64,000 bases of DNA from Myxococcota bacterium (GTDB lineage Bacteria > Myxococcota_A > UBA796 > CAJQPC01). The notes under the pieces were generated by a model that searched no databases, was not told the DNA's origin, and saw only the letters and a program-made list of their open reading frames with translations. The stretch lies in contig JAZAMN010000054.1 in NCBI GenBank assembly GCA_036229005.1, positions 17,983-81,982 on the forward strand, in the 5' to 3' direction. Made by a program: the position numbers and the translations under genes. This document shows, piece after piece, positions 11,979-42,540 of the stretch. How positions within the stretch are numbered: position 1 is the first letter of the stretch; each line of letters begins with the position of its first letter.

Positions 11979-12707
11979 ATGTTCCTGCTCCTGCTCGCAT
12001 GCAGCGGCACCCGCTTCGAGGGGAGCGTCGTCGATGTCAACGGCGCGCCCGTGGCAGGAGCGATGGTCACCGTGGTCGGCCAGCCCTGCCAGACGGTCGT
12101 CCAGGAGGACGGGACCTTCTCCCTCCCCTGCGCCTCTGGGGTGCACGACCTGAGCGTCGGACGCTCCGGCTACCTCTCCCAGAGCTGGGAGCAGCTCGAG
12201 GCCACCGAGCGCAAGGCCTACGACCTGGGCCAGACCACCCTGGTCAAGGTCCCCGAGCAGGAGGGCCTGCTGGTGTTTCAGGCGGGCAGCTACCAGCCCA
12301 TGGAGCGCGGCTTCCTGGTCAAGGACAGCGGCGGCCGCGGGGTCAAGCAGTTCCGTCACTACTGCCTGCCGGAGGGGGCCACCGAGCGCATGCCCGTCAA
12401 CCGCTTCCCCGCCGGCGAGGTCGCCTTCTTCGACAACCACTCGGAGGGCTGGCGCCCCTGGAAGCTGGACCGGGAGGGCTGCGCCTACCGCATGTCGCCC
12501 ACCAGCGAGACCCGCTGGGGCGTGGACTACTCCGAGAAGGCCGACTGGACCGAGACCCGCCTGGCCGAGGGGCAGAAGCTGGTCGTGATGACCCTGGAGC
12601 CCGGCGCATACTTCATCGCCGACTGGGGCAACGGCTTCTTCGTCAAGGGCGCCAGCGATGACCCCAAGATCCCCGGCTACAGCGGGGCTTTGGTGTTGGT
12701 GGAGTAG
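11979..12707 (+). CDS. Lipoprotein with carboxypeptidase-regulatory-like (CarboxypepD_reg) domain
   Basis: GGAGG RBS and MFLLLLAC. Domain pattern GSVVDVNGAPVAGAMVTV...DGTFSL...LSVGRSGY. Confidence 0.7.
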   Translation: MFLLLLACSGTRFEGSVVDVNGAPVAGAMVTVVGQPCQTVVQEDGTFSLPCASGVHDLSVGRSGYLSQSWEQLEATERKAYDLGQTTLVKVPEQEGLLVFQAGSYQPMERGFLVKDSGGRGVKQFRHYCLPEGATERMPVNRFPAGEVAFFDNHSEGWRPWKLDREGCAYRMSPTSETRWGVDYSEKADWTETRLAEGQKLVVMTLEPGAYFIADWGNGFFVKGASDDPKIPGYSGALVLVE

Positions 12708-12770
12708 CCCAAGGGGCGTGCAGATCCGGGCCAATGGGTTAGTCACCCAGCCCGTCTGCAAGGAGGCCCC

Positions 12771-13310
12771 GTGGAGTTCAAGGTTGGCGACAGAGCTGTC
12801 TACCCCGCACATGGTGTGGGAGTGATCACCTCCCTCCACGACGAGGACCTCGAGGGCGAGACCTACACCGTCTACACCTTCAAGGTGCTGGACAACGGCA
12901 TGACCATCACCGTGCCCGTCCAGAACGCCGACGCCATCGGCATGCGGCACATCATCGACCCCAAGAGCATCGACAAGATCTACGACATCTTGCGGGACCG
13001 CGACACCCCCACGGACAACCAGACCTGGAACCGTCGCTACCGCGAGTACATGACCAAGATCCGCACCGGTGACCCCCTCGAGGTCGCCAAGGTCCTCCGC
13101 GACCTGGCCCTGATGAAGATGGAGAAGAGCCTCTCCTTCGGCGAGCGCAAGATGTTCGACCACGCGCGCAGCCTGCTGGTCCAGGAGATCGCCGTCTCCA
13201 AGGACAAGGAGGAGGACTCCATCCAGAAGGAGATCGAGGGCCTCTTCGTCGCCCAGCCCGAGGCTGCGGACAAGAAGAAGTCCAAGGGCCGCGCCAAGGC
13301 CAAGAAGTAG
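12771..13310 (+). CDS. carD: CarD/CdnL family RNA polymerase-binding factor
   Basis: FKVGDRAVYPAHGVG, conserved Trp in QTWNRRYRE, and LSFGERKM. AGGAGG RBS with GTG start. Confidence 0.95.
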   Translation: MEFKVGDRAVYPAHGVGVITSLHDEDLEGETYTVYTFKVLDNGMTITVPVQNADAIGMRHIIDPKSIDKIYDILRDRDTPTDNQTWNRRYREYMTKIRTGDPLEVAKVLRDLALMKMEKSLSFGERKMFDHARSLLVQEIAVSKDKEEDSIQKEIEGLFVAQPEAADKKKSKGRAKAKK

Positions 13311-13358
13311 TCACACCGCGGCCCCCGCTGGGGCCGCCACATCTCGGGGAGAGCCACC

Positions 13359-14870
13359 GTGGCCCTGCAGCTCTACAACACCCTCTCCCGCAGCCTCGAG
13401 GACTTCCAGCCCATCGAGCCGGGCAAGGTCCGCATCTACGTCTGCGGGATGACCACCTACGACTACTGCCACATCGGCCACGCCCGGGCGATGATGTCCT
13501 TCGACGTGGTCGTGCGCTACCTGCGCCACGCCGGCTACGAGGTCACCTACGTCCGCAACCACACCGACGTGGACGACAAGATCATCGCCCGCGCCGCCGA
13601 GCTCGGCGAGCCGCCCCTGGCCCTGTCCGCCCGCTTCATCGACGCGCTGGACCAGGACCTGGACGCCCTGGGCCTCATCCGCCCGGACATCGCCCCCAAG
13701 GTCAGCGAGCACATCGACGGCATCGTCGCGATGACCGCCACCCTGGTCGACAAGGGCCACGCCTACCCCGCCGACAACGGCGACGTGTACTTCGCGGTCG
13801 AGTCCTTCGACCGCTACGGCAAGCTCTCCGGGCGCAAGCTGGACGAGCTGAGGGCTGGGGAGCGCGTCGCAGTGGACCCCAACAAGCGCAACCCCGGTGA
13901 CTTCGCCCTGTGGAAGGGCGCGAAGGAAGGCGAGGTCGCTTGGGACAGCCCCTGGGGCCCCGGCCGCCCCGGCTGGCACATCGAGTGCTCCGTGATGAGC
14001 TCCGCCCACCTGGGCGAGCGCTTCGACATCCACGGCGGCGGCATCGACCTGATCTTCCCCCACCACGAGAACGAGATCGCCCAGTCCGAGTGCGCCCACG
14101 GGTCCCACCCCATGGCCAACCACTGGATGCACAACGGGCACCTCTCCGTGGTCGAGCGGGACGAGGACGGTCAGTGGCAGCAGATCAAGATGTCCAAGTC
14201 CCTGGGCAACGTGATCCGCATCCGCGACGTGCTGGCCGAGATGCCCGCCGAGGCCCTGCGCTGGGTCTACGTGCAGAGCCACTACCGCAGCCCCCTGCCC
14301 TACTCGGCCGAGGCCCTGCAGGACGCAATGGCGACCATGTCCCGCGTCTACGAGGCCAAGGAGCGCGCGACCGAGATCGCCGCCAAGGAGCCCAAGGCCA
14401 GCGCCGAGCAGCTCGCCAAGGAGTCCGGCGCGGCCAAGGAGCTCTACGCTCTGGCCGCCGGCTTCCAGGACGCCTTCAACGAGGCCATGGACCAGGACTT
14501 CAACACGGCCAAGGCCAGCTCCCTGCTGCTGGAGCTGGTGCGCACCGTGAACCGCCTGTCCAACGACAAGTCCATGCGCAAGCGCGGCGCCGCCCTGATG
14601 GCCATGGTGCTGGGCGCCTTCGAGACCAGCGCCAAGGTGCTGGGCATCGGCGGCATGGACCCCGAGGCCTTCTTCGCCGAGCTGCGCGACAAGCAGGCCA
14701 AGGTGCGCGGACTGGACACCGCCTGGGTCGAGGCCCAGCTCGTGGCCCGCACCCAGGCCCGCACGGACAAGGACTGGGCCGCCGCCGACCAGATCCGCGA
14801 CGCGCTGCTCGACAAGGGCGTGCAGATCATGGACAACCCCAGCGGGGTGACCTGGCGCGTCCAGCTCTGA
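13359..14870 (+). CDS. cysS: Cysteine--tRNA ligase
   Basis: YVCGMT, CHIGH, GRPGWHIECS, HGGGIDLIFPHHENE and KMSKS. Confidence 0.98.
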   Translation: MALQLYNTLSRSLEDFQPIEPGKVRIYVCGMTTYDYCHIGHARAMMSFDVVVRYLRHAGYEVTYVRNHTDVDDKIIARAAELGEPPLALSARFIDALDQDLDALGLIRPDIAPKVSEHIDGIVAMTATLVDKGHAYPADNGDVYFAVESFDRYGKLSGRKLDELRAGERVAVDPNKRNPGDFALWKGAKEGEVAWDSPWGPGRPGWHIECSVMSSAHLGERFDIHGGGIDLIFPHHENEIAQSECAHGSHPMANHWMHNGHLSVVERDEDGQWQQIKMSKSLGNVIRIRDVLAEMPAEALRWVYVQSHYRSPLPYSAEALQDAMATMSRVYEAKERATEIAAKEPKASAEQLAKESGAAKELYALAAGFQDAFNEAMDQDFNTAKASSLLLELVRTVNRLSNDKSMRKRGAALMAMVLGAFETSAKVLGIGGMDPEAFFAELRDKQAKVRGLDTAWVEAQLVARTQARTDKDWAAADQIRDALLDKGVQIMDNPSGVTWRVQL

Positions 14871-14879
14871 GGGCTGGCC

Positions 14880-15491
14880 GTGGCCTGGTACTCCTGGTTC
14901 TCCAGCTTCTATGACCAGGCCCTGGAGGGGCTCTACGCCCCCTTCCGGGAGCAGGCCTACGCCCAGATCCGTCCCGGCGCCCGGGACGCGCTCCTGCTCC
15001 CCTGCGGCACCGGCCAGGATCTCCCTCCGCTGATCCCCCGACTCGCACCAGGCGCCCGTCTGACCTGTATGGACCTCGACGGCGGGATGATCGCCAAGGC
15101 CCGCGCGCGCGCCACGCAGTTCGAGCGGTGTGCCCTGGAGTTTGTGGAGGGAGAGGCTGCAAGCCTCGGCCAGCACTTCGACCAAAACTCCCTGGATCTG
15201 GTGGTGTTTCCCCTGGGGCTGAGCGTCATCCCCGAACCCGAGGACACCCTGGCGCTGGCCTGGTCCCGGCTCCGGCCCGGGGGGCAGTGCCTGATCTTCG
15301 ACTGCTGGGCCCGCGAGCGCACCCTGGCGACCTGGTCGGTGGAGCTGGTGGCGCAGGCCGATGTTTCGCGCACGCCCTTCAAGAAGCTGGAGGCGCTGGC
15401 GCAGGACTACGAGTTCACCCTGCTGCCGGAGGCCTCGCCGTGGACCTTCGGGGGGGAGCTCTACGTGGCGAACGCAGTGAAGGGCGAATGA
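14880..15491 (+). CDS. Class I SAM-dependent methyltransferase
   Basis: Motif I LLPCGTG, then CMDLDGGM and RLRPGGQCLIFD. Confidence 0.8.
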   Translation: MAWYSWFSSFYDQALEGLYAPFREQAYAQIRPGARDALLLPCGTGQDLPPLIPRLAPGARLTCMDLDGGMIAKARARATQFERCALEFVEGEAASLGQHFDQNSLDLVVFPLGLSVIPEPEDTLALAWSRLRPGGQCLIFDCWARERTLATWSVELVAQADVSRTPFKKLEALAQDYEFTLLPEASPWTFGGELYVANAVKGE

Positions 15492-15535: not shown

Positions 15536-15565
15536 CATGAAGGTGTTCCAGTCAAGGAGACCCTC

Positions 15566-16599: not shown

Positions 16600-16626
16600 G
16601 CCCACAGGGACGGGTCCCCAGAGCGA

Positions 16627-16691: not shown

Positions 16692-17750
16692 TCACTGCAC
16701 GAGGACCATGTTGCAGGCGACCTCGACCTGCTCCTTCTTGCCCTCGCAGGTGGTGTAGCGCACGATCTCGGCGATGTGGGCGCCGGGCTCGCTGAACTTC
16801 TGGGAGAAGTGGTAGCGGGCCTCCTGCTTGCCGTTGAAGTCGACCATCTCGGCGGCGTTGTCCTTGGACACGGACTTGTAGTCCACCCAGACGTCGTAGG
16901 AGGCCGTGCAGCCCTCCTTGAGCTCGCGGCCGTCGGTCCCGATGTAGTGGTAGTGGACCTCCTCGTCCGCGCCGAAGCCGCACTGGTTGGGCAGGCAGGG
17001 CTTGACGTCCTCTTCGGTCGCGGGGAACTCGGCGGCCTTCATGGCGATCATGTCGGCGCTGTCGGTGCAGTGCTCGAACATGAACTCCTCGTCGCTCTTG
17101 ACGAAGAAGTCGGTGCCGACGGGGTTGGAGTCTTCCTTCATCTCCCCGTTGTAGATGGTCATGTAGTTGTCGGTGATCCGGAGCTGGCACTTCTTCTCGT
17201 GCACCTTGACGTACACGCGGCCCTGGAGCTTGTTGCCCAGGTTGTTGTTGTTCAGCACGAACTGGTCCCACTTGTCGCCGTCCTTGAACTTGGCGACGGT
17301 CTCGGCGGCCTCCTTGGAGCCCGCGTCGAAGGCGGCCTGGTCGACGCCGCGGTCGATCTTCTGGATGGCCTCCAGGGTGCACTCCTGGCCGACGACCATC
17401 AGGGCCTGGCACCAGTCCTTGACCTTGGGCTTCTCGAAGCACTCGAGCTCGTCGCCGTCCTTGTTCTTGCGGCACTCGAAGTCGTAGACGTCCGAGTAGG
17501 AGCCGACGGTGTACTTGGCGACCAGCTTGCCGTCCTGGGTGACGAACTTCATGCGGGTCTGCTCGTCGGGGGCGCGGGAGCCGTCGGACTCGAGCTTGTC
17601 GTACATCCAGGTGGTGCCGTCCAGGCCATCCAGGGTCAGACCACACTCGCCGGTGGCCTCTTCGCCCAGGTTCAGGCTGTTGCCCTTCTCCTCGCAGGCG
17701 ACCAGGCCAAGGGTGAGGCCCACCAGGCCCAGCAGAGTCAGCTTCTTCAT
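16692..17750 (-). CDS. Cys-rich lipoprotein of unknown function
   Basis: GGAGG RBS and signal MKKLTLLGLVGLTLGLVAC. Many Cys residues but no CxxCH. Confidence 0.8.
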   Translation of the reverse strand: MKKLTLLGLVGLTLGLVACEEKGNSLNLGEEATGECGLTLDGLDGTTWMYDKLESDGSRAPDEQTRMKFVTQDGKLVAKYTVGSYSDVYDFECRKNKDGDELECFEKPKVKDWCQALMVVGQECTLEAIQKIDRGVDQAAFDAGSKEAAETVAKFKDGDKWDQFVLNNNNLGNKLQGRVYVKVHEKKCQLRITDNYMTIYNGEMKEDSNPVGTDFFVKSDEEFMFEHCTDSADMIAMKAAEFPATEEDVKPCLPNQCGFGADEEVHYHYIGTDGRELKEGCTASYDVWVDYKSVSKDNAAEMVDFNGKQEARYHFSQKFSEPGAHIAEIVRYTTCEGKKEQVEVACNMVLVQ

Positions 17751-19288: not shown

Positions 19289-19780
19289 ATGAAGAAGTTC
19301 GCGATCGCAGGCCTGCTCCTGCCCCTGGTGGCGCTGAGCGCGTGCAGCAAGGATGAGCCCACGGACTCCGCCGGTGCCCTGAGCGAAGAGGAGCTCGCCA
19401 CGATGCTGTGGGACGAGATCCAGGGCTACGAGAGCTGGGACACCCCCGAGAGCTGGCCCGAGAACTCGGTGAGCGCAGACGGCACCCACGGCGCCTACGT
19501 GTCCATCTACATCAACGACGTGGAGGCCGCGGGCGGCGGCGACGGCGCCATCATCGTGAAGAAGGGCTACGACTCGGCCGAGGGCGCGGACCCCAAGGAC
19601 GGCGTGACCGTGATGTGGAAGACCGCCGACTTCGAGTCCGAGAGCGGCTGGTTCTGGGCCAAGTACGACGACGCGGGCGAGGCCTCCGTGACCGGCGAGG
19701 CCGGGGCCTGCACGGGCTGCCACAGCGCCAGCAGCGACTACCAGACCTACAAGAGCAACTCCCCGGGCACGGAGGAGTAG
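19289..19780 (+). CDS. Cytochrome P460-family lipoprotein
   Basis: Lipobox LSAC. GAIIVKKGY, VTVMWK and GWFWAKY, with C-terminal heme motif CTGCH. Confidence 0.75.
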   Translation: MKKFAIAGLLLPLVALSACSKDEPTDSAGALSEEELATMLWDEIQGYESWDTPESWPENSVSADGTHGAYVSIYINDVEAAGGGDGAIIVKKGYDSAEGADPKDGVTVMWKTADFESESGWFWAKYDDAGEASVTGEAGACTGCHSASSDYQTYKSNSPGTEE

Positions 19781-21035: not shown

Positions 21036-21833
21036 TCAGCCGCCCAACACGTAGGCCACCCGCAGGCGGCCCGTGTAGATGTAGCCGGGAGCGGTGTAGA
21101 ACTCGCCAGCCAGGTCCAGCTTGTCCATGACCCGGGCCTGGGCGCCCACCGAGGCGGTGAGGCCGAAGTAGGGCTGCTCGTTGACGGCCAGGTAGGCGTC
21201 GTCGCCGATGACGAAGAAGGTGCTGACGTCGGTGAAGCCCACGGCGGCGTAGGGGGTGACCTTGTCGGTGGCCAGCCCGTACATCGCGTCCACGCCGAAG
21301 GTGGAGCCCGAGTAGAAGTCGTCGTAGGCGGGGTCCCCGTCCACGAAGGGGGTGGCGATCTCGGCGACGGTCTTCATGAGGGTGGCGTGGCCGCGGAGGC
21401 CGACCTGGTGCTTGTCCGCGACGGTCATGCCCGCGCCGAGCTCGCCGGAGACGATGACGTTGCGGGTGCCGAAGAGGGTCACGGGCGGGACGTAGCCGGC
21501 GCCGCCGTAGAGGGTCACCGGGCCCAGCTCCGGGAAGGAGAAGGTCATGCGCGGGCGGGGCGCGATGGGGGCCTTGTTGGTGTCCTCGGTCTTGGTGGAG
21601 TTGAGCACCAGGCGCTGCTCGCAGGACAGGGGCGGGATGCCCAGGATCTCCACTCCGATGCTGCCGGTGCCCGCCTCGCTGGGGATGGGCGCGTGCAGCG
21701 GGGACGCCGTGGTGGCCAGGGCGAAGTAGTTCATCAGGAAGTCCTGCTGACCCTGATCATCGAGCTTCTGGGTGACGCCCTCGCAGGCGGGGTCCACGGA
21801 GGCGAAGGCCGTGGTCATCATCAAGAGCAGCAT
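21036..21833 (-). CDS. Putative outer-membrane beta-barrel protein
   Basis: Amphipathic strands (VTPYAAVG, FGLTASVGAQARV, YTGRLRVAYVL). Start overlaps the stop of the upstream cytochrome gene. Confidence 0.6.
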   Translation of the reverse strand: MLLLMMTTAFASVDPACEGVTQKLDDQGQQDFLMNYFALATTASPLHAPIPSEAGTGSIGVEILGIPPLSCEQRLVLNSTKTEDTNKAPIAPRPRMTFSFPELGPVTLYGGAGYVPPVTLFGTRNVIVSGELGAGMTVADKHQVGLRGHATLMKTVAEIATPFVDGDPAYDDFYSGSTFGVDAMYGLATDKVTPYAAVGFTDVSTFFVIGDDAYLAVNEQPYFGLTASVGAQARVMDKLDLAGEFYTAPGYIYTGRLRVAYVLGG

Positions 21834-22334: not shown

Positions 22335-23483
22335 TCACCAGCCCATGTGCAGCCACAGGCTCACGGGCACGTCCCAGCCGGCCTGCAGGCGCCAGTCCAC
22401 GCCGGCCTGCGCGCCCACGGAGAGCTGCTCGGAGAGGGCGTAGTCGGCCTGCACGCGCCCCCCCACCACCAGGTCCTGGTAGGAGATGCCGCGGGCGGCC
22501 TCCCAGCGCGTGCTGCCGGTGGTCTTGAGGTCCAGGCGGCGGCTCGGGGACACCGCGTAGGAGCCCGCGACCTTGTGGAAGGCCAGGTAGGGGGCGTACC
22601 AGCTATCCTCCAGGCCCTTGGTGTAGCCCAGCGAGAGGCGCTGGTGCCGGGTGGGGCTCCAGACGGCGGCCACGTTGCCGATGACGCCGTCGATGGGGGT
22701 GGTCGACACCACGCCGCCGTCCCGGAGCTGTGAGAAGCCGACCGCGGCGTTGATGACCAGCGGGTAGTCCACCCGGCCGAAGATGCCGAGCTGCGCGTTC
22801 CAGCCCCAGCCGGGGAGCTGGGTGCCGGCCCAGGCGTAGGCCTCGGCGCCGCCAGAGAGCACCAGATCGGTGCGGGGGAAGAAGGACCAGCGGATCTCCG
22901 CGTCCCCGCCCCCGGCCACGCGGGTGTTCGTGCTGGTGGGCACCAGGTAGCTCAGAGTGCCGACGCTGACGTTGTAGTTGTCGACCTGCCCGCGGCCCAG
23001 GAGCTGGAGGCGCAGCGCGCCGCCGCCGGGGGTGTAGCGCACGCCCGCCTGGGTGATGGAGCGCTGGCGCACCGTGAGGCCCTTGCCGTCAGCCAGCGCC
23101 AGGGAGCTGGGGGCCAGGCTGTGCTTGCGCTGGGCCTGCTCCCGAACGACCACCTGCAGCGGACGCCGGGGCCGCAGCAGCAGGGTGGTGTCCAGGTCCA
23201 GGTCGGTGCGGGAGAGCTGCCAGGCGGCGACATCGTCCCCCAGCACCAGCAGCACCTGCCGCCGGGTGGCGACGCCCGTGAGCCCCAGCGTGAAGTCCGG
23301 GGTCTCCCAGCGCAGGTCCACGCCCGGCCGCAGGAGCAGGCCCGCGGCGGGCTTGGGGTTGCCCGGGGTCCGGTAGACGTTGGGGGTGAAGGTGGCCCCC
23401 AGGTCGACGTAGGGGGAGACCGTCAGGCCTTTGGCCGAGATGCCCTCGCTGGCCTGGGCCAGCGCGCAAAGAATCAAGAACAT
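22335..23483 (-). CDS. Outer-membrane beta-barrel protein (porin-like)
   Basis: Many alternating beta-strands, short signal MFLILCALAQA and terminal aromatic residue (W). Confidence 0.65.
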   Translation of the reverse strand: MFLILCALAQASEGISAKGLTVSPYVDLGATFTPNVYRTPGNPKPAAGLLLRPGVDLRWETPDFTLGLTGVATRRQVLLVLGDDVAAWQLSRTDLDLDTTLLLRPRRPLQVVVREQAQRKHSLAPSSLALADGKGLTVRQRSITQAGVRYTPGGGALRLQLLGRGQVDNYNVSVGTLSYLVPTSTNTRVAGGGDAEIRWSFFPRTDLVLSGGAEAYAWAGTQLPGWGWNAQLGIFGRVDYPLVINAAVGFSQLRDGGVVSTTPIDGVIGNVAAVWSPTRHQRLSLGYTKGLEDSWYAPYLAFHKVAGSYAVSPSRRLDLKTTGSTRWEAARGISYQDLVVGGRVQADYALSEQLSVGAQAGVDWRLQAGWDVPVSLWLHMGW

Positions 23484-23538
23484 GGAGTGACCCTATGACC
23501 CTTGGACACCCCGGACCGCTCAGGGCGCTACCGGACGA

Positions 23539-23973: not shown

Positions 23974-24996
23974 ATGTGGATGCTGCTTCTGGCCTTGGGC
24001 GACAGGTGTGATCTCGATCCGGAAACGCTGGACTACAGCCAGCCTGAGCACTGGATCTGCCGACCTGGACAGGATGACCTCTGCTCGGCGCCGCCACCCG
24101 TTCTCCAGGTGGACCTGCAGGGCGATGTCCAGGAGGTGGAGGTCCCCGTCGCGGACACCGGGATCGACTGCTTCTTCGTCTACCCGACCATGGACATGCG
24201 CCTGGCGGTCGGGCTCCACAAGGACGCCACCGACCTGGAGGACGAGCAGCGCATCACCCTGTGGCAGGCCGCCCACATGGGGCAGGTCTGCGAGGTCTGG
24301 GCGCCCGTCTACCGCCAGGTCACCATCGGCACCTACTTCCGCCGGGAGAAGCGCGCCGAGCCCTGCCTGGACTCCGCCTACGACGACGTGCTGGCCGCCT
24401 TCGAGGCCTACCTGGCCGCCTCGGACCGCCCCTTCATCCTGGCCGGCCACTCCCAGGGCGCCCACCACATCACCCGCCTGCTGGACGAGCGGATCGCCGA
24501 CGACCCCGCCCTGCGCGAGCGCCTGGTGGTGGCCTGGCCCATCGGCAGCCCCCGCCCCGAGACCGAGCAGTTCCCGCTGTGCAGTGACAGCGCCGAGCCC
24601 GGCTGCGTGATGGCCTTCCGCAGCTACCTGGACGGCAACCCCCTCCCCGAGCTGGGCAGCCCCAGCCAGTGCGTGAACCCCGCCGCCCCCGGCAGCCTGG
24701 ACTGGCAGCCCCTGCCCGACGTCCTGCTCCCCACCGTCCCCGAGCGGCCCACCCCCGCCGAAGTTGAGCCCGCGCTCACCACCCTGCTGCGCTACCCCGA
24801 GGGCTTCTCCGCCCGCTGCCAGAGCGACGACGAGGGCCACGCCGGGCTCCAGGTGCGCTGGGATGGCCCCCCCGACCAGGACCCGCTGCGCGGCGTCGAG
24901 GGCCTGGACAGTGTGGTCGCCGGCGCCCACATCCTGGACTTCGCGTTCGGGCTCTACCCCCTGATGGACGACCTCAAGAGGCGGAGGCTCCCGTGA
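23974..24996 (+). CDS. DUF3089-like alpha/beta hydrolase
   Basis: DCFFVYPT, WAPVYRQ and RPFILAGHSQG nucleophile elbow, with C-terminal HILD. Confidence 0.85.
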   Translation: MWMLLLALGDRCDLDPETLDYSQPEHWICRPGQDDLCSAPPPVLQVDLQGDVQEVEVPVADTGIDCFFVYPTMDMRLAVGLHKDATDLEDEQRITLWQAAHMGQVCEVWAPVYRQVTIGTYFRREKRAEPCLDSAYDDVLAAFEAYLAASDRPFILAGHSQGAHHITRLLDERIADDPALRERLVVAWPIGSPRPETEQFPLCSDSAEPGCVMAFRSYLDGNPLPELGSPSQCVNPAAPGSLDWQPLPDVLLPTVPERPTPAEVEPALTTLLRYPEGFSARCQSDDEGHAGLQVRWDGPPDQDPLRGVEGLDSVVAGAHILDFAFGLYPLMDDLKRRRLP

Positions 24997-25772
24997 TCCT
25001 GCTGCTGCTGGCCTGCACCCCCACCGAGCTGAACCCCGGCACCGGCCCCTGCGTCTGGAACCAGGCCTACCAGGAGGACGAAGACGCGGCCCCCGACAGC
25101 CTCTCGGCGATGCTCGCACAGGCCCAGGACTGCTACACGCTGGTCGACCCCTTTGACGAGGAGAGTGAGTCGGCGGTCGAAGCGGCCATCCCCACCCTCC
25201 AGGCCTCTGGGAACCAGGTCGGCTGCTATGTGTCGGTGGGCACCTGCGAGGACTGGCGCAGCGACTACGACGCGCTCTCCCCCTACTGCGTCGACCAGGC
25301 CTGGGACGCCTGGGAGGGTGAGTACTTTGTGTCCGACACCGTCGGCATCCTCCCGGGCATGAAGGCCCGCCTGGACGCCGCGGCCGAGCTGGGCTGCGAC
25401 TGGGTGGAGCTGGACAACATGGACTGGGCCCAGGACGACGAGGTGTCCGAGTCCACCGGCGTCAGCGAGGACCAGTCCCGGGAGTACGCCGAGGCCATCT
25501 GCGCCCACGCCGACAGCCTGGGCATGCAGTGCATGGGCAAGTCCAGCACCCTGGGCCTGGAGCTGAGCGGCCTGACCGTCGAGAGCTACCCCCGCGAGCA
25601 GGACTGGTGGGAGCACAGCGAGCTGCAGGGCGTGCTGGACCGCGGCGGCCTGGGCATCGTGGTGCACTACCAGGAGGGCGACTGCGCGGCGGTCGCCAAC
25701 GAGTACCGGGCCTCCTACGGCTCGGACCTGTCCGTCATCTGTGAGGAGGACGGGGAGTACCTGCACCTGTGA
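24993..25772 (+). CDS. GH114-like endo-alpha-1,4-galactosaminidase lipoprotein
   Basis: GCYVSVGTCEDWRSD, WEGEYF and ARLDAAAELGCDWVELDNMD. GTGA overlap with the upstream gene. Confidence 0.8.
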   Translation: MILLLLACTPTELNPGTGPCVWNQAYQEDEDAAPDSLSAMLAQAQDCYTLVDPFDEESESAVEAAIPTLQASGNQVGCYVSVGTCEDWRSDYDALSPYCVDQAWDAWEGEYFVSDTVGILPGMKARLDAAAELGCDWVELDNMDWAQDDEVSESTGVSEDQSREYAEAICAHADSLGMQCMGKSSTLGLELSGLTVESYPREQDWWEHSELQGVLDRGGLGIVVHYQEGDCAAVANEYRASYGSDLSVICEEDGEYLHL

Positions 25773-25778: not shown

Positions 25779-26729
25779 TCAGCGCTTGAGCCCCCACCCC
25801 ACGCTGCACTGCGTCCCCACCCCCACCCGCTGTACGAGCTGCACACCCTCGGTGTCCTGGAGCACGGGGACCTGGGCACTCACAACGCAGGCGACCGCAG
25901 GGAGCACGCGCACGGCGGCCTGGCCCTGGATGCCCAGCTCGCGGCGCTGACCGACACGCAGGGTGGTTGGCAGACCGGTGTCCTCGTCGGTGGTCTCGAT
26001 GCGGTCACGGGTGTGCAGGGAGCCGGATGCCAACAGGGTGAGCTGCCAGCGGTCCTTGCGCCCAAGACCCACTGCTGGCCCGGTCCTCAGGGAGAGGTCC
26101 CGCCCCCACCAGATCTCGTCGGGGGTGTAGCCGACGGGCTGCTGGAAGCTGGCGGCCGCCACCCAGGAAAGGCCCCCGAGCTTGACCCGGCCGCTGGCGG
26201 CTGCGGACAGGGCGAAGCTGCCAGAGCCCAAAGACGCGCGGGTGTCGTAGGTGGTCAGGTAGTAGGCGCCGTCCTGCTGCTCGATGTCGGTGACCGAGAA
26301 GCTGGCCTTCTGGTTGTAGTGGCCGGTGGGCACGCGCAGCGCGAGGGAGGCCTGGCCGGCGAACAGGGACTTGCGGCGGCCAAAGCCCTGAGAGGCGACG
26401 AGCTGCAGATCCCCCAGGCCCACGGAGCCCTGCTCGTCCTGGAGGACCTGGCCGGTGGGGAGCGAGAGCTGGAGCGCCGTGCGGGAGGGCAGGCGCACCC
26501 CCACAGTGGGCGTGAGGGTCTGGACCAGGACGCTGGCGGTCGCTGCGTCGCCCATGGACTGGCCGTCGCGCAGCACCCGGGAGAAGTCGGAGAAGCCGTA
26601 GCGCAGGGCGGCCTCGGCCCGGGGGAGCGGGAGGCTCAGGCCCACGGTGCTCGCGGTCTGCAGGGGGTCGTCGCCCACCCGACCGACGGCGACGTCGTGG
26701 TGGGCCAGCATCAGGGCCAGCGGCAGCAC
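25779..26729 (-). CDS. Putative beta-barrel transporter-like outer-membrane protein in the MbnP/H operon
   Basis: SVGLGDLQL, LRVPTGHY and SLGSGS resemble MetA-pathway/SphA-type barrels. GTG start 3 nt after the mbnH stop. Confidence 0.6.
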   Translation of the reverse strand: MLPLALMLAHHDVAVGRVGDDPLQTASTVGLSLPLPRAEAALRYGFSDFSRVLRDGQSMGDAATASVLVQTLTPTVGVRLPSRTALQLSLPTGQVLQDEQGSVGLGDLQLVASQGFGRRKSLFAGQASLALRVPTGHYNQKASFSVTDIEQQDGAYYLTTYDTRASLGSGSFALSAAASGRVKLGGLSWVAAASFQQPVGYTPDEIWWGRDLSLRTGPAVGLGRKDRWQLTLLASGSLHTRDRIETTDEDTGLPTTLRVGQRRELGIQGQAAVRVLPAVACVVSAQVPVLQDTEGVQLVQRVGVGTQCSVGWGLKR

Positions 26730-26732
26730 GGC

Positions 26733-27848
26733 TCAGTCCTGGTAGGGGTCGGAGAAGGCCGGGTTGGTCAGGAACTCCGGGTCGGTGAGGGCGCCCAGAA
26801 ACGCCACCAGGTCCTCGCGCTCCTGATCGGTCAGCGAGAAGCCCGCGACCAGACCGGACTTGAGGGGTGAGAGGGCCCCATCTCCGGCGTAGGGCCCCTC
26901 CTCGATCAGCCGGCCGCCGCGCTCGTAGATGGCGATGACCTCCTCGAGCGTCTCGACGCTGCCGTCGTGCATGTAGGGCGCGGTGACGGCCACGTTCCGC
27001 AGGCTGGGCGCCCGGAAGCGGCCCATGTCGGCGGGGTCGCGGGTGACCTCGTAGACGCCGGGGTTGTTGCCCGGGTAGCCGCCCTCGCCGTCGATGTTGT
27101 AGAGCCCGGTGTTCTGGAAGAGCGAGGCGTCGAAGGCGCTGCCCTCGTGCACGCTGGCCTCGGTGAAGTTGAAGCCGCCGTGGCAGTGGTGGCACTCCAG
27201 ATCTTCGGAGAAGAACAGGGCCAGCCCGCGCAGCTCCGAGTCGCTCAGGGCGCTCGCGTCCCCCTGGTAGGTGAACTGGTCGAAGGGCGAGTTGCCCGAG
27301 ATCAGCGCGCGGTTGAAGCTCGCCAGCCCCTGCAGGATGCGGTCCCAGGCGATGGGGTCGGCGTCGTCCGGGAAGGCGGCCTCGAAGCGCGCGACCATCT
27401 CGGGGTCGGCGGCCAGGCGCTCCAGGATCTCGTCCTGGTAGGGCCCCGCCCCCATCTCCACCGGCGCGTCCCCAAAGAGCGGGGTCAGGTGCTGGTCCTC
27501 CAGCTCGGTGAGGATGGGGTTGGCCCAGGTCAGGGTGGCGTTGTAGCCGACGTTGACCAGGCTGTTGGCGTTGCGGACGTGCTCTTCGCCCGTGGAGCCC
27601 AGCCCCACGGTGCGGCCGTCGGTGAACGCGAGCTCCTGCAGGTGACAGGACCCGCAGCTCTGGGTCTCGTTGCCCGAGAGGCGGGTGTCGTAGAAGAGGT
27701 AGCGCCCCAGCTCCACCTTCTCGGCGGTGAGGGGGTTGTCCTCGGGCACGCGCAGCTCGGGGAAGCCCTCGGGGATCACCACGGCCGGCGCCGCTCCGGT
27801 GTCCGTCTCGGCATCCTTGCAGGCCAGCGTGGCGAGGACGAGCAGCAT
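26733..27848 (-). CDS. mbnH: MbnH-family di-heme enzyme (bCcP/MauG superfamily)
   Basis: CGSCH, CHHCH, LGRYLFYDTRLS and FRAPSLRNVAVTAPYMHDGS. Adjacent to mbnP. Confidence 0.9.
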   Translation of the reverse strand: MLLVLATLACKDAETDTGAAPAVVIPEGFPELRVPEDNPLTAEKVELGRYLFYDTRLSGNETQSCGSCHLQELAFTDGRTVGLGSTGEEHVRNANSLVNVGYNATLTWANPILTELEDQHLTPLFGDAPVEMGAGPYQDEILERLAADPEMVARFEAAFPDDADPIAWDRILQGLASFNRALISGNSPFDQFTYQGDASALSDSELRGLALFFSEDLECHHCHGGFNFTEASVHEGSAFDASLFQNTGLYNIDGEGGYPGNNPGVYEVTRDPADMGRFRAPSLRNVAVTAPYMHDGSVETLEEVIAIYERGGRLIEEGPYAGDGALSPLKSGLVAGFSLTDQEREDLVAFLGALTDPEFLTNPAFSDPYQD

Positions 27849-28699
27849 CACTCCGCCCCGAACACGCTCTGGGCGCCGCAGTCCGACACGCAGAGGCCCG
27901 TGGAGAAGTCCATGCCCAGCGACTCCCAGATGGGGCCGCAGTCGTCCGGCTCCGACGGGGCGCTCATGCAGCCCGGGGGGGTGTCCGCGGTGTCGGCGCC
28001 CAGGTCCAGGTCCGCCACCAGCTCGGCCAGGTCCACGGAGACCACCTGGGTCTCGGGGTCGAAGCCGGACAGCTCGACGGTGGCGCGGTTGGGGTTGCTG
28101 CACTCTTCCGTCGGGGGCGAAGTCGCAGCGTCGCTGGTGCAGCCGGTGGAGCCCACGTGCATGTTCGAGCGCAGCACGGTCTCACCCTGAACGCTCCAGT
28201 CCACCCGGACGAACTTGTAGCCGCCCTGCCAGGACCAGAACATGCCCGGCGAGTTCAGGGGGGCGTCCGCGGTCGCGTTGTCCAGGTGGTTGTGCTCAAA
28301 GGGCACGCCCACCACAAAGCGCAGGCCGCTGTAATCGCCCTCCGCGATGCTGCCGACGATCTGGCTGTTCAGGTCCGCGTTGCCGCTGTCCGCGCAAGCA
28401 CCGCTACCGTCCTCGAAGTCCATCAGGGCGATGTCGTGGACCTGCCACTTGCCGTCCTGCTCCAGGTCCATCGCGACCCACTCACCGTCGGCGTTCTGCA
28501 GCTCGACGCCGGAGATGAAGAAGCGGGCGTCCGCGAGCTGGGCCGTCGCCTCCCCGCTGCCCACGCTGTAGGCGGTCGCGCAGGACACGGGCTCCCCGCC
28601 CACGGTGGCGGCGAACTCCAGGGTCAGGTCCTGGGTGGTGACGCCGCTGTCGACGGGATCCTTGTCGCAGGCGGTCAGGGTCAGGAAGAAGGCGAGCAT
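27848..28699 (-). CDS. mbnP: MbnP-family copper-binding protein
   Basis: DARFFIS, LRFVVGVPFEHNH, GMFWSWQGGYKF (WxW) and HVGSTGC...CSNPNR. Confidence 0.9.
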   Translation of the reverse strand: MLAFFLTLTACDKDPVDSGVTTQDLTLEFAATVGGEPVSCATAYSVGSGEATAQLADARFFISGVELQNADGEWVAMDLEQDGKWQVHDIALMDFEDGSGACADSGNADLNSQIVGSIAEGDYSGLRFVVGVPFEHNHLDNATADAPLNSPGMFWSWQGGYKFVRVDWSVQGETVLRSNMHVGSTGCTSDAATSPPTEECSNPNRATVELSGFDPETQVVSVDLAELVADLDLGADTADTPPGCMSAPSEPDDCGPIWESLGMDFSTGLCVSDCGAQSVFGAE

Positions 28700-29742: not shown

Positions 29743-30657
29743 ATGAACTTTCGGAACCCGGACTTCTCCCTTCGCCAGCTCCAGTACGCCCTGGCCATCG
29801 AGCAGGAGGGCAGCTTTGGCAAGGCGGCGCGGGCCTGTGGGGTGTCCCAGCCCTCGCTGAGCGCGCAGGTCGCCAAGCTGGAGGAGGCGCTGGGGGTGCA
29901 GCTCTTTGACCGCCAGCCCCGCAGCACCCTCCCCACGGCCGACGGCAAGCTGCTGCTGGACCGCATGCGCGGCCTGCTGGGGGATCTGAAGGCGCTGGAG
30001 CAGCACGCTCAGGAGCTGCGCAACCCCTGGGGGACCCCGCTGCGCGTGGGCGTGATCCCCACCATCGCCCCCTACCTGCTGCCCCGGGTCGTGCCCCGTC
30101 TGGCCAGCGGCCCACACCCTCTGCGCATCCACTGGGTGGAGCTGCAGACCGCCGCCTGCGAGCGCTCGCTGGCCGAACACGAGCTGGACGCCATCGTGAT
30201 CGCCGACCCCAGCACCCGCGCGGGCACCGAGTCGCTGGAGCTGGGCTGGGAGGACTTCCACCTGCTGCTGCCCTTGGACCACCCCTTCCAGGGGCCCGCA
30301 ACGAGCTGCGATCTGACCCGCTTTGAGCTGCTGCTGCTGGAGGAGGGCCACTGCCTGCGCGACCACACGCTGGAGGTCTGCACCCTGGACCGCGTGCGGG
30401 AGTCGCCGTTCCGCGCGACCTCGCTGCCCACGCTCACGCAGATGGTGGCCCAGGGCTTGGGGTGCAGCGTGCTGCCGACCAGCGCGGTGAGGCTGGAGAC
30501 GTCGCGGGCGCCGGTGCGCACCCTGCCGCTGCAGGACGGCAAGGCGGGGCGGATGCTCAGGCTGATCTGGCGCGCGCAGAGCCCCCGGCTGGAGCCGATC
30601 CTGGGCCTGGGCGAGCACCTGCGCTCAGCACTGCAGGAGCTCACGGAGGAAGGCTGA
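29743..30657 (+). CDS. oxyR: OxyR-like LysR regulator
   Basis: HTH VSQPSLSAQV, GVIPTIAPYLLP and LLEEGHCLRDHTLEVC (both redox Cys present), plus FRATSL. Confidence 0.8.
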   Translation: MNFRNPDFSLRQLQYALAIEQEGSFGKAARACGVSQPSLSAQVAKLEEALGVQLFDRQPRSTLPTADGKLLLDRMRGLLGDLKALEQHAQELRNPWGTPLRVGVIPTIAPYLLPRVVPRLASGPHPLRIHWVELQTAACERSLAEHELDAIVIADPSTRAGTESLELGWEDFHLLLPLDHPFQGPATSCDLTRFELLLLEEGHCLRDHTLEVCTLDRVRESPFRATSLPTLTQMVAQGLGCSVLPTSAVRLETSRAPVRTLPLQDGKAGRMLRLIWRAQSPRLEPILGLGEHLRSALQELTEEG

Positions 30658-31323
30658 GTCGGCGGCCTCACGGGCGCGGTGCAGGTCCCCCAGGCGGCGG
30701 GCCTGTCCCCCGTCCACCAGCACCAGCTCGGGCTCCCAGGCCAGCAGATCCCGCAGGTCGTGGGTGACCACCAGGCAGTCCCGACCGGCCATGGCCCCGG
30801 CCAGGTGACGGCGCATGGCGGCCTTGTTCTCGACGTCCAGCGACGCGGTGGGCTCGTCCAGGAGCAGGAGCCGGGGGTCGGTCGCCAGGGCGCGGGCCAG
30901 GGCCACGAGCTGGGCCTCTCCGCCGCTGAGTCCGCGGGTGGAGCGCTCGGCCAGGTGGTCCAGGGAGAGGGACTGGAGCTGGTCGCGGGCCCGGCTGCGA
31001 CGCGCCGAGCGGCCCCCGGAGACCCCGAAGCCGACGTTGTCCAGCACGCTCAGGTGGGGGAAGAGTCGGGCGGCCTGGGGCAGGTAGCCGACCCGCCTGT
31101 CCTCGGGGGGGCAGTGGATCCCAAGGGTGCTGTCGCAGAGCACGCGGTCCCGGTGGTGGGCCCTCCCGGCGAAGTCACCCGATCCCGCAAAGAGCCGAAG
31201 CAAGCTACTCTTTCCCGACCCATTCGGACCGATGATCGCCACGACGCCCCCGGGCAGCTCCAGGTCCAGCTCCAGGCGGAACGCCCCCCGGCGGAGGGTC
31301 CCGCGAAGGCCCAGCTCAGCCAT
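30625..31323 (-). CDS. modC: Molybdate ABC transporter ATPase
   Basis: [24 protein letters not shown] and LLLDEP. Follows modB. Confidence 0.9.
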
Positions 31324-32089
31324 GCAGCAGCTCCCCGCGGTTCAGGCCGCGCAGCGCGAGCAGCAGCACCAAGGCCACCGCCAGCAGCAGCAGCGCCATG
31401 GCCTGGGCCTGCTCCAGATCGCGCTCCAGGGCCTGGAAGATGGCCAGGGGCAGGGTCTGGGTGCGCCCCGGCAGGTTGCCCGCGAACATCAGCGTCGCGC
31501 CGAACTCCCCCAGCGAGCGCGCCCACGCCAACCCCGCCGCGCCGACCAGGCCGGGGAGCGCCGTGGGAAGGGCCACCCGGGTGAAGGCCTGCCAGCGGGA
31601 CGCGCCAAGGGTGCGGGCGACCAGGAGCAGCTCGGGGTCGACCTCGCGGAGGGAGGAGGAGGCCGCGAGCACGTAGAGCGGGGCGCCCACAACGACCTGG
31701 GCCAGCACGACGGCCGCCACCGTGAAGGGGATCTCGACCCCCAGCGAGGACAGGCTGGGCCCGAGCAGCCCCTGGCGCCCAAAGGTCTGGAGCAAGGCCA
31801 CGCCCAGCACCGCCGGCGGCAGCACCAGCGGCAGCTCCAGCAGCAGGGACAGCGGCCGGGAGGAGCGGGCGTCGGGGCGGGACAGCCACCAGGCCAGGGG
31901 CGTGCCCACCAGCACCGAGATCGCCAGCGCCAGCGCGCTGGTCCACACCGAGAGGCCCAGCGCCTCCAGGGTCCCGGGGCGCTGCAGGGCCGCCCAGAGC
32001 GCCACCGGCGAGCTGCCCGTGAACAGCCCCAGCAGCGGCAGGAGCAGCAGCCCGGCCAACAGCCAGGTCGTGGCGGCGCGCAGCCTCAT
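31316..32089 (-). CDS. modB: Molybdate ABC transporter permease
   Basis: LPLVLPPAV and [17 protein letters not shown]. Confidence 0.92.
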
Positions 32090-32808
32090 GGGGTGGGGGT
32101 GAAGCCGTGGCGCTGGAGGGTCTGGGCCCCCTGGGGAGACGCGAGCAGCGCCAGGAAGGCCTGGGCCGACTGGCTGGGACCGGCGGGGTCCACGGGGGCG
32201 ATGGCGTAGGTCGGCGCAGGCGCGAGCTGGGCGGGTACAGGGCTGGCCACGAGCTGCGGGGCCGCCTGCAGATCCGTCGCGTAGACCACGGCGGCGTCGG
32301 CCTCCCCCATGGCCACCTTGGCCAGCACCAGCCGCGTGTTGGACTCCCGCGAGCGCACGGCGGCGCCCATCTGGGCCGCCCACTGGGGCCCATAGGAGTC
32401 TCCGGCGGCCGACAGGAGCTGGTCCGTGTAGCCGCCGATCGGGGAGCTCGGGGTCCCCAGGACCACCCGCCCGGCCTCTGGGAGCGCGCGCAGGGTCAGC
32501 GGCCCCGGCCCAGCGAGGACGAGCTGGTTCTGCGCGAAGCTGCGGGGGTCCACCGCCAGGCCCTCCTGCTCCAGCGCACCCAGCAGCGCGGTGTCGGCGC
32601 TGGCGAGGAGATCCGCCCGCAGCCCCATCCGGAGCTGGGCGGCGTGGGTCTGGCTGCCCGCGAACACCAGCTCCAGGGAGGTGTCCGGGTGCTGCGCCTG
32701 GTACTGGGCGCCCAGCTCGGTGAAGCCCTCCTGCAGGGAGCTCGCGGCCAGCACGCGCAGGGTGTGGTGGGGCTCGGGCGCGCAGCCCAGGCTCAGCAGC
32801 AGCAGCAT
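32086..32808 (-). CDS. modA: Molybdate ABC transporter substrate-binding lipoprotein
   Basis: [31 protein letters not shown] and [12 protein letters not shown]. Confidence 0.92.
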
Positions 32809-33860
32809 CAGGCGGCCACCGTGCGCATCGGCCCCAGGCCCTGGAGCTGGTAGGCGCCCATGGCCTGGACCTGGCGGCGGTAGGGCAGGCTCTGGAGGGT
32901 GTCGAGCAGGCGCTGGACGCCGGGGTGCTGCAGGCCCTGGGCGCTGACCACCAGCTCGAAGCGCTCTTCGGCCAGGGGCACGAACTCCAGGCCCAGGGCG
33001 CGGGCCACGGGCTCCACGACCACCGCGGCGTGGGCCAGCCCGTGGCGCACCGCGACCGTGGCGTCCATGTGGGTCGCGCAGGCCGGCCCCTGGAGCTGCA
33101 TGGGGTCCATTCCCTGCGCCCGCAGCGCGCGCTCCAGCACCCGAGCGGCCCCCGAACCCGCCGGCCGGAGCGCCACCTGGATCCCTGGGTTCAGCAGGTC
33201 CTGCACGCCGCGGATCGGGCTGCCCGGGGGCAGGGCCAGGCCCTCGCGCCAGCCCACCAGCGGCAGGATGTGGGCGTGTCCCAGGCGCTCGCTGACCAGC
33301 GCGTCGTGGGTGCTGGGCGCGTCCAGATCCGCCAAGTGGAGGCCGGCCACGTGCACCCGCCCCTGGCGCAGCAGCTCCAGCGAGCGGCCCGAGGGGAGCT
33401 GCAGCCAGCGCGCGGGCTCCTGCCGGACGAGCAGGCCGACGCCGACCCCCAGGGTGGGCGCGCAGCCGGCGATCAAGGCGCTGGACTGGGCCTCGCTGGG
33501 GTCCACCGTCGGCTGGACGCGGCCCTGGGCGTCCACCACCCCATCCGCGGGCTCGGTGCTGCCCGGCTCCAGGGCGTGGGCCACCCAGCGCCCGTCGATG
33601 TGCCCGAGCACCACGCGCCTTCCGGCCAGCTCGGGCAGGTGCAGGTCGGGGAGCGCGGGGCCCTCCACCGAGAACAGGGCCTCGACCGAGCAGCCCAGCG
33701 CGGCGGCCAGCCGCAGGGCCACCAGGGTGGAGGGCGTGGAGCGCCCGGACTCGATGGCGGAGAGCGCCTGCCGGCTGATGCCCACGCGCTCGGCCAGGGC
33801 GGTCTGGCTGAGGCCCGCTTGGGCGCGGCGGCGGGGCAGGTCGGTGTGCAGGGTGGCCAT
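32808..33860 (-). CDS. XRE-HTH plus molybdate-type PBP domain regulator
   Basis: [39 protein letters not shown] and [11 protein letters not shown]. Confidence 0.85.
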
Positions 33861-33903: not shown

Positions 33904-33957
33904 ACAACGGGTGACCTCGCTGGGATAGGGGGTGCAGAGATTGCTTTGGAGGTTGGG

Positions 33958-34479
33958 ATGTTGGTGGTTTGGTCAGTGTTTGCGTGCAGTGAGGTCCCCT
34001 CTCCTCCCCCGGAGCCCGCGGTTGAGGTCGAGGCCAAAGCGCACCCCCAGGACACCCTGGATGGGATGGACAGCCGCACCCCGCTGCCCATGCCGCCGAT
34101 GATGGCGCTGCACCAGAAGGAGCAGATGCGCGGCCACCTGGAGGCCACCCAGGAGCTGAGCGCGGCGCTCGCGGAGAGTGACTGGGCGGCGATCGAGGCG
34201 GCGGCCTCCAAGCTGGGCAGTTCGCCGCAGATGGCCATGACCTGCGACCACATGGGCGCGGCGGCCGAGGGCTTCACCCCCCAGGCGCTGGACTTCCACG
34301 CGCGGGCCGACAAGATCGTGGAGGCCGCCCAGGCCCAGGACCAGCAGGCGGTGCTCGCGGCGACGGCAGACACCCTGGCGGCGTGCACGGCCTGCCACAA
34401 CACCTGGCGGCAGCAGATCGTGAGTCCGGAGGCCTATGCGGAGCTGACGGGGGGTGCGGGGCCGATGGGGCATCACTGA
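33958..34479 (+). CDS. Class II (four-helix, cytochrome c'-like) cytochrome lipoprotein
   Basis: GGAGG RBS, MLVVWSVFAC, helical body and C-terminal CTACH. Confidence 0.8.
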   Translation: MLVVWSVFACSEVPSPPPEPAVEVEAKAHPQDTLDGMDSRTPLPMPPMMALHQKEQMRGHLEATQELSAALAESDWAAIEAAASKLGSSPQMAMTCDHMGAAAEGFTPQALDFHARADKIVEAAQAQDQQAVLAATADTLAACTACHNTWRQQIVSPEAYAELTGGAGPMGHH

Positions 34480-37310: not shown

Positions 37311-37318
37311 CGCGGCGC

Positions 37319-39105: not shown

Positions 39106-39106
39106 C

Positions 39107-41236: not shown

Positions 41237-41256
41237 AATGACCTCGCTGGCGCCCC

Positions 41257-41297
41257 TTATTGAAATCTCTGTTGACTTGCAATTTCATTTCCAATAG
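41257..41297. promoter_or_regulatory. Fur-box-like AT-rich divergent promoter
   Basis: TTATTGAAAT...TTGCAATTTCATTTCCAATA between the TonB receptor and the lipoprotein. Imperfect inverted repeat in otherwise GC-rich DNA. Confidence 0.55.
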
Positions 41298-41325
41298 TTG
41301 GGCCGGCCAACCCCAGGAGCACCAG

Positions 41326-42540
41326 ATGCCTCTCCTCCTTCCCCTGCTCTTTGCCTGCACCGCCCCCAGCGACACCGCTGAGGACACCCAGACCACCGAC
41401 GACACCGGCAGCCCCTCGGCCTACGACGGCTACGTGGTCGCTGACATCGTGATCACCGACAGCGGGCGCACGACCTACTTCCAGGCGGTGCCCGAGCTCA
41501 GCGGGGACATCGACAACAGCGCGGCCGTCGAGCTGGCCGGGAACGCCGAGGTCGCCGTGGTGGGCGGCTACGTGCTGGGCAGCGACACCGAGGCGCCGGT
41601 CTGGTACCGCTACACCGTCGACGCCGAGGGTCAGATCGAGGCCGCCGGCGAGATCAGCTTCGCCGCCTACGGCTGGGCGAACATCGACTACTACAACGTG
41701 TTCGTCAGCGAGGACCTGGCCCTGTCCCTGAACACCAGCCTGGCCGAGGGCATCTGGTGGAGCCCCAGCGACCTGAGCATCCTGGGCACCATCGACATGA
41801 GCCAGGTCTTGTCCGAGGGCTACTCCACCGAGCACTTTGCCCCCACCCTGGCCGACGGCCGCATCTACCTGCCCGTGCGGCACGCGGACTGGACCAACTA
41901 CGTCATCAAGCACGAGACCCGCGTGCTGGTGATCGACACCGAGAGCCAGTCCATCGTCGCGGACCTGGCGGACGACCGCTGCCCCAGCTCCGGCAGCATC
42001 ATGCTCTCCCCGGACGGCATGGCCTACACCATGAGCGACGGCCGCAACTACTCCGCGCAGATGATCGCGCGGGCCACGGGCGCCGACGAGATCCCGGTCA
42101 ACTGCTTCCTGCGCTTTGACCCCGCGGACCTGGAAGCCGGCTTCGACAGCGACTGGAGCGTCGACGTGCCCGAGCTGACGGGCGGCCGCGAGGTGGTGAC
42201 CAACCTGGCCTCGGGCGACCTGAGCTCCGGCGTGGGCTTCGCGCAGGTCATGTACGAGGAGGAGATCGACGGCGAGCCCGTGGACTTTGGCTTCTGGAGC
42301 CAGCCCTTCTCCAAGGTGTGGCGCTTCGACCTGAGCAGCGGCACCCCCAGCGCGGAGCTGGTGGAGGGCGCGCCCTTCACCGGCATCGGCTTCGGCGGCG
42401 TGGCCGTGGAGGGCGACCTGCTCATGGGCCAGTCCACCGACGGCGCCAGCTCGGACGTGCTGCGCTTTGACCCCGACACGAACACCGCCACCGAGATGTT
42501 CACCATCGAGGGCTACTTCTACCAGGCCTTCAAGCTCTGA
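41326..42540 (+). CDS. MxcI/DUF4374-like beta-propeller lipoprotein (iron uptake)
   Basis: AGGAG RBS and MPLLLPLLFAC. GRTTY, DDRCP and GFDSDW..D..ELTGGR. Divergent from the MxcH-like receptor. Confidence 0.7.
   Translation: MPLLLPLLFACTAPSDTAEDTQTTDDTGSPSAYDGYVVADIVITDSGRTTYFQAVPELSGDIDNSAAVELAGNAEVAVVGGYVLGSDTEAPVWYRYTVDAEGQIEAAGEISFAAYGWANIDYYNVFVSEDLALSLNTSLAEGIWWSPSDLSILGTIDMSQVLSEGYSTEHFAPTLADGRIYLPVRHADWTNYVIKHETRVLVIDTESQSIVADLADDRCPSSGSIMLSPDGMAYTMSDGRNYSAQMIARATGADEIPVNCFLRFDPADLEAGFDSDWSVDVPELTGGREVVTNLASGDLSSGVGFAQVMYEEEIDGEPVDFGFWSQPFSKVWRFDLSSGTPSAELVEGAPFTGIGFGGVAVEGDLLMGQSTDGASSDVLRFDPDTNTATEMFTIEGYFYQAFKL

Follow-up and report, generated by a model that had tools for sequence, protein, structure and literature searches.

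Some eukaryotic signal peptides have an n-region of a single residue, begin with M-L-L-L, and carry the free amino group as their sole positive charge; however, they are still approximately 15 residues or longer and lack a lipobox. In bacteria, the tripartite model describes Sec signals as having a positive n-region, and the loss of n-region charge lowers transport, as set out in the available part of PMC5875014. Both Sec and lipoprotein signals are described as having a positive n-region and a core of minimum length in the available parts of PMC5875014 and PMC9360617, and a lipoproteome study reports, as far as its available text goes, a mean Cys position of 21.4 ± 2.7 with a search pattern that requires R or K (PMC13068155). 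In the present study, we analyzed a window of 64,000 nucleotides (nt) from an uncultured Myxococcota bacterium (assembly GCA_036229005.1, contig JAZAMN010000054.1, positions 17,983 to 81,982 of the forward strand; coordinates below are those of the window), in which proteins of extracytoplasmic type begin with uncharged leaders of 7–11 residues, and examined these leaders across the genome and its relatives. To our knowledge, the accepted minimum length of a bacterial signal peptide is far above that of these leaders.

Like canonical signals for signal peptidase II (SPase II), such as those of the Escherichia coli Lpp type, the lipoprotein-type leaders carry L-x-[AGS]-C behind a hydrophobic core, and Lgt, LspA, and Lnt genes are present. 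The mature N-terminus is acidic and rich in Pro and Thr, as in the canonical lipoproteins of this genome. However, there is no basic n-region, and the Cys is located at positions 8–13 instead of ~15–35. A second class shares the Leu-rich core and, putatively, the A-x-A site of signals for signal peptidase I (SPase I), but consists of ~9–13 uncharged residues without the tripartite n-h-c layout of ~18–30 residues. A literature search, the reach of which excluded most subscription papers, found no description of such leaders, and the available part of a secretome study covering Myxococcota (PMC11495043) contains nothing on short leaders. The trait is apparently unpublished.

Frequency and cargo of short leaders

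Genes of the 6.4-Mb genome (70% GC) were called with an in-house dicodon model (5330 genes, 5226 of which scored >30), and a strict census was performed on the 1870 genes in which the first start codon was an ATG close to the coding start. In this proteome-wide count, a short uncharged leader with a lipobox Cys at positions 8–13 was present in 231 genes (12.4%), in contrast to 18 of 24548 internal Met residues (0.07%); canonical lipoprotein leaders numbered 49. Leader lengths formed two separate peaks, with means of 8.6 (short) and 18.9 residues (canonical). SPase I-like leaders were short in 211 genes (11.3%; internal-Met control 3.9%) and canonical in 99. The 809 lipobox candidates were divided into 582 that were short and uncharged only, 86 canonical, 59 that fit either class, and 82 that fit neither. 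The lipobox filter, which demanded A/G/S at -1 and a hydrophobic stretch, recovered 6 of the 8 lipoprotein examples of the window, and the short class of 582 may hold false members, namely long leaders starting at GTG or TTG. A DNA pattern of Met, a five-residue core, and Ala-Cys, which detects Cys 8 only, had 80 matches in the genome, while the reversed pattern had none. The short uncharged leaders are real and genome-wide, and not a product of chance.

In the short class, Leu occupied -3 in 368 leaders, and -1 was Ala in 461, Gly in 97, and Ser in 24, the -1 residue being preset by the filter. The informative part of the lipobox test is that residues -3 to -1 match the canonical lipoboxes of this genome. 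An A-x-A site was found in 146 of the 211 short SPase I-like leaders, a class that includes false positives, vs. ~118 after shuffling; it peaked at positions 9 and 11 (29 vs. 11 in shuffles at position 11). Core hydrophobicity per residue (Kyte-Doolittle) was higher in short than in canonical leaders (2.85 vs. 2.44). The short leaders contain no Arg and lack a twin-arginine (Tat) motif. A ribosomal-like codon score, used as a proxy for expression, differed little (short -0.111, canonical -0.099, p 0.005).

c-Type haem is attached outside the cytoplasm. The CxxCH motif was found in 32 of the 582 short-class proteins, 6 of the 86 canonical ones, and 84 of all 5330 proteins, whereas Walker A motifs were present in 7 of the 582 vs. 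216 of the 5330. Among the 21 OmpA-domain proteins, many begin with a short leader; the BamD-like protein and one Pal-like protein keep Arg. As judged from sequence, we regard the export and lipidation of short-leader proteins as probable.

Short-leader genes of the window

The initial annotation named ten N-termini in the window, and all of them read as described. The family labels it had attached were borne out by Pfam matches: a ModA-type SBP_bac_11, CCP_MauG (MbnH), and MbnP, along with a cytochrome c' match. The genes are listed below, followed by canonical leaders for contrast.

11979..12707, + strand: lipoprotein-type gene with a carboxypeptidase regulatory-like domain; MFLLLLA-C, Cys 8; GGAGG site; in-frame stop 7 codons upstream
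11142..11870, - strand: cyclophilin-domain protein; MLMLLAALVA-C, Cys 11; GGAG/AGGAG-type site; start ambiguous, as an in-frame GTG at 11903 would make a 22-residue leader with two Arg
21036..21833, - strand: protein without a Pfam match; SPase I-like 11-residue leader MLLLMMTTAFA; start overlaps the preceding stop (TGATG); in-frame stop 3 codons upstream
22335..23483, - strand: outer-membrane beta-barrel (BBP2_2-like); SPase I-like 11-residue leader MFLILCALAQA; in-frame stop 3 codons upstream
23490..23495, - strand: TAGGGT, a -10-like box of a probable leaderless transcript, 12 nt before the ATG at 23483; its TAG is the in-frame stop
24993..25772, + strand: GH114-domain lipoprotein; GTG start overlapping the upstream stop (GTGA); Cys 8
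26733..27848, - strand: MbnH-like di-haem cytochrome c peroxidase (CCP_MauG); Cys 10, or 11 when counted from a GTG at 27851; start and mbnP stop overlap (TGATG)
27848..28699, - strand: MbnP-family lipoprotein; Cys 11; first start of its open reading frame (ORF); GGAG/AGGAG-type site
32086..32808, - strand: ModA-type binding protein (SBP_bac_11); MLLLLSLG-C, Cys 9; ATG overlaps the regulator stop (TGATG)
32808..33860, - strand: helix-turn-helix (HTH) and PBP-like regulator; its stop fixes the modA start
33958..34479, + strand: cytochrome c'-like lipoprotein; Cys 10; GGAG/AGGAG-type site
41326..42540, + strand: lipoprotein-type gene with a weak Kelch match; Cys 11; GGAG/AGGAG-type site
5737..6663, - strand: canonical lipoprotein leader MKRAAL..., contrast case
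16692..17750, - strand: canonical lipoprotein leader MKKLTLL..., contrast case (from the sequence)
19289..19780, + strand: cytochrome P460-like protein with the canonical leader MKKFAI..., contrast case (from the sequence and Pfam)

Canonical leaders thus coexist with short ones in the window, as had been claimed; besides those at 6663, 17750, and 19289, a fourth is located at 4671. The 23483 protein is barrel-like, with a feature score of 0.98 and a predicted structure with a TM of 0.86–0.90 to barrel models.

Several neighborhoods were noted in passing. The mbnP-mbnH pair is followed by a 316-amino-acid (aa) gene without a Pfam match (25779–28699, - strand), a possible copper-handling module. 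The mod cluster (30625–33860, - strand) consists of the HTH/PBP-like regulator, modA, a modB-type permease, and an ABC ATPase. A 1013-aa protein with a leader of canonical type (7436–10477, + strand) contains invasin-like and Big_1 Ig repeats.

Position of the translation starts

Most of the ten starts are supported by a stop-start overlap, a nearby upstream in-frame stop, or a ribosome-binding site (RBS), in agreement with the initial annotation; only that at 11870 is ambiguous. Upstream TTG starts exist for 33958 (at 33946) and 41326 (at 41260), but yield no signal-like leader.

Genome-wide, 339 of the 809 lipobox candidates have the Cys at position 12 or earlier and no earlier in-frame ATG, GTG, or TTG. 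Since an in-frame stop lies no more than 14 codons from the Cys in 117 genes, directly before the start in 10 of them, a longer leader is ruled out there. None of these 117 strict cases has K or R in the leader, and a positive n-region is absent from a set that was unfiltered for charge except at residues -5 to -2. Among the 117, 63 have TAG or TAA exactly 12 nt upstream, and in 36 of these the sixth position is T; we infer that this box is the -10 box of leaderless mRNA. TAnnnT 11–13 nt before the start was also found in 240 of 2944 ATG-start genes vs. 2 of 3000 internal ATGs, and leaderless transcription seems to be common in this genome.

An RBS, a -10-like box, or a stop overlap accompanied 453 of the 582 short-class starts vs. 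343 of 3000 internal ATGs, and the DNA upstream of short-class starts scored as non-coding (-1.15 vs. +0.73). Coupled starts were found in 142 of the 582 short-class genes vs. 3 of the 86 canonical genes, and leaderless starts in 64 vs. 1. Stop-codon recoding was considered and rejected: the coding score fell from approximately +0.5 to approximately -1 after TAG, TGA, and TAA alike.

ModA provides a comparison across genomes. The upstream regulator was present at 15 of the 30 loci examined, and its stop overlapped the modA start at all 15. Eleven of these ModA leaders were uncharged with Cys at 8–13, three from order members keep Arg, and that of the single class outgroup has Cys 18 with Arg. 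The lipobox Cys is retained in ModA relatives of several families.

Occurrence in related genomes

The DNA pattern matched 72–129 times in three congeners and more than 6 times in 23 of 40 relatives; kin genomes are not independent in these counts. In a sample of the phylum, 21 of 43 order relatives exceeded 6 matches vs. none of the 257 genomes outside the order, with ranges of 0–129 inside and 0–6 outside. The trait is concentrated in one order. In six class outgroups, no short leader was found among 229 sampled genes, which included 9 canonical and 4 ambiguous leaders. Gene-level samples revealed short leaders in two low-count order genomes, namely in 6 of 105 genes of G282 (four convincing) and 6 of 95 of G006, and in one gene of G005. 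Since short leaders were found in the samples of some order genomes and no convincing one in those of others, the capacity looks order-wide and its usage highly variable. The claim of the initial annotation that this lineage uses short uncharged leaders on proteins of extracytoplasmic type is well supported at the sequence level, genome-wide and in many genomes of the order.

In a quick SecY tree, the order formed one clade (SH-aLRT 100; one misframed row included), which was not firmly placed beside three named Myxococcota. The SecY of a record labelled Enterobacterales fell inside this clade, and its label looks wrong.

Translocation and lipoprotein-processing genes

The initial annotation took the leaders to imply altered specificity of the export or lipoprotein machinery, or a parallel route. 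The genome encodes one SecY, one SecA, Ffh, FtsY, five S26 peptidases, one Lnt (above the cut-off), four Lgt, and two LspA, both of which carry the two Asp motifs. The Sec system is complete and single-copy, and LepB is also present. A second SecY or SecA, or loss of the signal recognition particle (SRP), was rejected: SecY and SecA are single, and Ffh and FtsY are present. With no second SecY, SecA, or Ffh found in the genome, the parallel route is unsupported. Two Lgt (G000:C21:84306-85220; C52:307944-308822) have atypical motifs, with HDH after the GRLGC motif and DLG before the conserved Glu. At G000:C8:68311-71829, two lspA genes flank the gene of a 495-aa membrane protein, and lgt follows. 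Extra copies fail as a cause because class outgroups without the trait are equally rich: Lgt numbers 2–8 in 110 order genomes, 2–7 in 23 class outgroups, and 1–6 in 37 other phylum members, and LspA 1–3 in order and class alike.

The Ffh M domain was found in 30 of 30 genomes; compared with 15 class rows, 15 of 16 order rows carry an insertion of two residues. Nothing order-specific stood out in the preprotein-binding domain of SecA, the deletions of which relative to E. coli are common to class outgroups.

SecY differed at position 187 (E. coli numbering), which is Ala in this genome. Of the usable sequences, all 47 from the order have Ala or Ser there and all 19 from class outgroups have Ile, in a tally that left out G013, G377, and one named row (wrong frame), as well as G287. 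G335, an order genome, has two SecY matches; the fetched copy groups with class family f11, has Ile187, is probably contamination, and was kept out of both tallies. Phe192 is mostly Thr in the order, and I82, I86, I191, I278, and I408 are kept. According to the available part of PMC2171872, I187 is the fourth member of the SecY isoleucine ring, and prlA alleles admit altered signals; I187A/S is thus a substitution at a pore-ring residue, like those of E. coli prlA (SecY) suppressors. Unlike prlA alleles, it occurs naturally and has become fixed in an order; the prlA positions given in that part of PMC2171872 do not include 187, and the suppressor activity of I187A/S is putative. Substitutions at other ring residues often yield super-active channels, as reported in the available part of PMC13537251. 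It is plausible that Ala or Ser at 187 is a permissive change. The pore-ring change lends some support to the suggestion of a modified SecY, although it represents a single evolutionary event.

Discussion

We consider the short leaders to be minimal Sec signals, consisting of a hydrophobic core and a cleavage box, that are handled by the ordinary machinery with relaxed proofreading (probability approximately 0.6). The leader would comprise Met, 4–8 strongly hydrophobic residues (mostly Leu), and then an L-L-A/G/S-C lipobox or A-x-A, without a basic n-region; the N-terminal amino group would be its only possible positive charge. SecA or the SRP would bring it to the single SecYEG, an Lgt would lipidate the Cys, and the leader would be cut by LspA, or by LepB for A-x-A types. 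The SecY of the order, with Ile187 changed to Ala or Ser, may proofread less strictly, akin to a natural prlA allele. Such a relaxed SecY would make the n-region dispensable, and genes would then have shed it one by one when the start moved beside the hydrophobic core, mostly at stop-start overlaps and leaderless promoters. The link between I187A/S and the tolerance of short leaders is possible, but we lean slightly against it. We rather doubt, and propose tentatively, the broader scenario that the SecY of the whole order is relaxed by nature in a prl-like manner, that its Lgt and LspA accept a 7-residue leader, that most of its lipoproteome is exported outside the tripartite model, and that one or two changes in SecY would suffice to transfer the trait to E. 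coli.

Several points weigh against minimal Sec signals and a relaxed SecY. Seven residues are too few for a membrane-spanning helix, which makes it difficult to explain how such a leader would open the lateral gate and be held by Lgt and LspA. The SecY change is one evolutionary event, and 22 of 43 order relatives have 6 or fewer pattern matches, similar to outgroups, despite having it. No convincing short leader was found in 20-kb samples of G144, G029, G025, and G028/G022 (360 genes). Position 187 is also not Ile in 17 of 78 usable named outsiders (T 11, S 4, A 1, V 1); two Myxococcota records among the outsiders had 1 and 3 pattern matches. Order-specific columns are common (8 in SecY, 26/814 in SecA, 18/490 in Ffh, and 12 in LspA), and Lgt likewise shows them. 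I187A/S was absent among the E. coli SecY library entries searched in the available part of the PMC13537251 supplement, in which I187M was found at 187 (log2 fold change 0.47).

A dedicated factor, such as an Lgt or LspA paralogue, an altered SRP with co-translational poly-Leu capture, YidC, or an unknown chaperone, may instead handle the short leaders, with I187A/S being incidental. The four Lgt, two of which have atypical active-site motifs, and two LspA genes are consistent with this explanation, as are the higher hydrophobicity of the short cores, the Ffh insertion, and the order-specific LspA columns. However, the copy numbers of Lgt and LspA match those of class outgroups, and since short SPase I-type leaders also exist, Lgt and LspA cannot explain these. 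We regard a dedicated factor as unlikely.

It is improbable that the proteins are exported but uncleaved, anchored by their short hydrophobic N-terminus, which may carry a diacylglyceryl group. The helical mode of LspA binding described in the available part of PMC9360617 requires a longer leader than these. However, residues -3 to -1 equal those of canonical lipoboxes, A-x-A is enriched at positions 9–13 of the non-lipoprotein class relative to shuffles, and an outer-membrane barrel (23483) bears such a leader.

True starts further upstream, at near-cognate codons or beyond recoded stops, would give normal signals and overturn our reading. Of the 339 genes without an earlier start, 109 have an upstream CTG, ATH, or ACG that would give 13–35 residues, with K or R in 70, and 59 candidates and the window gene at 11870 are ambiguous. 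However, it would require read-through in the 117 genes, while all three stops behave as stops; the upstream stop is the TA of the -10-like box in 63 of these genes, and the stop-start overlaps at modA are conserved. We consider upstream starts to be very improbable. That the proteins stay inside the cell and their leaders are relics is hardly credible, given that approximately 1 gene in 8 bears the pattern, that c-type haem motifs are over-represented and Walker A motifs under-represented in the cargo, and that ModA lies within an intact modABC cluster and its relatives of several families keep the lipobox Cys.

Secretion engineering could profit from very short leaders and a tolerant SecY. 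With hundreds of natural examples and one candidate channel residue, the need for an n-region and for helix length becomes directly testable. Leaders of approximately half the textbook length also call into question what the minimal bacterial signal peptide is. Since search patterns that require K or R and a Cys at position 15 or later miss most of the lipoproteins of this order, its secretome is probably underestimated.

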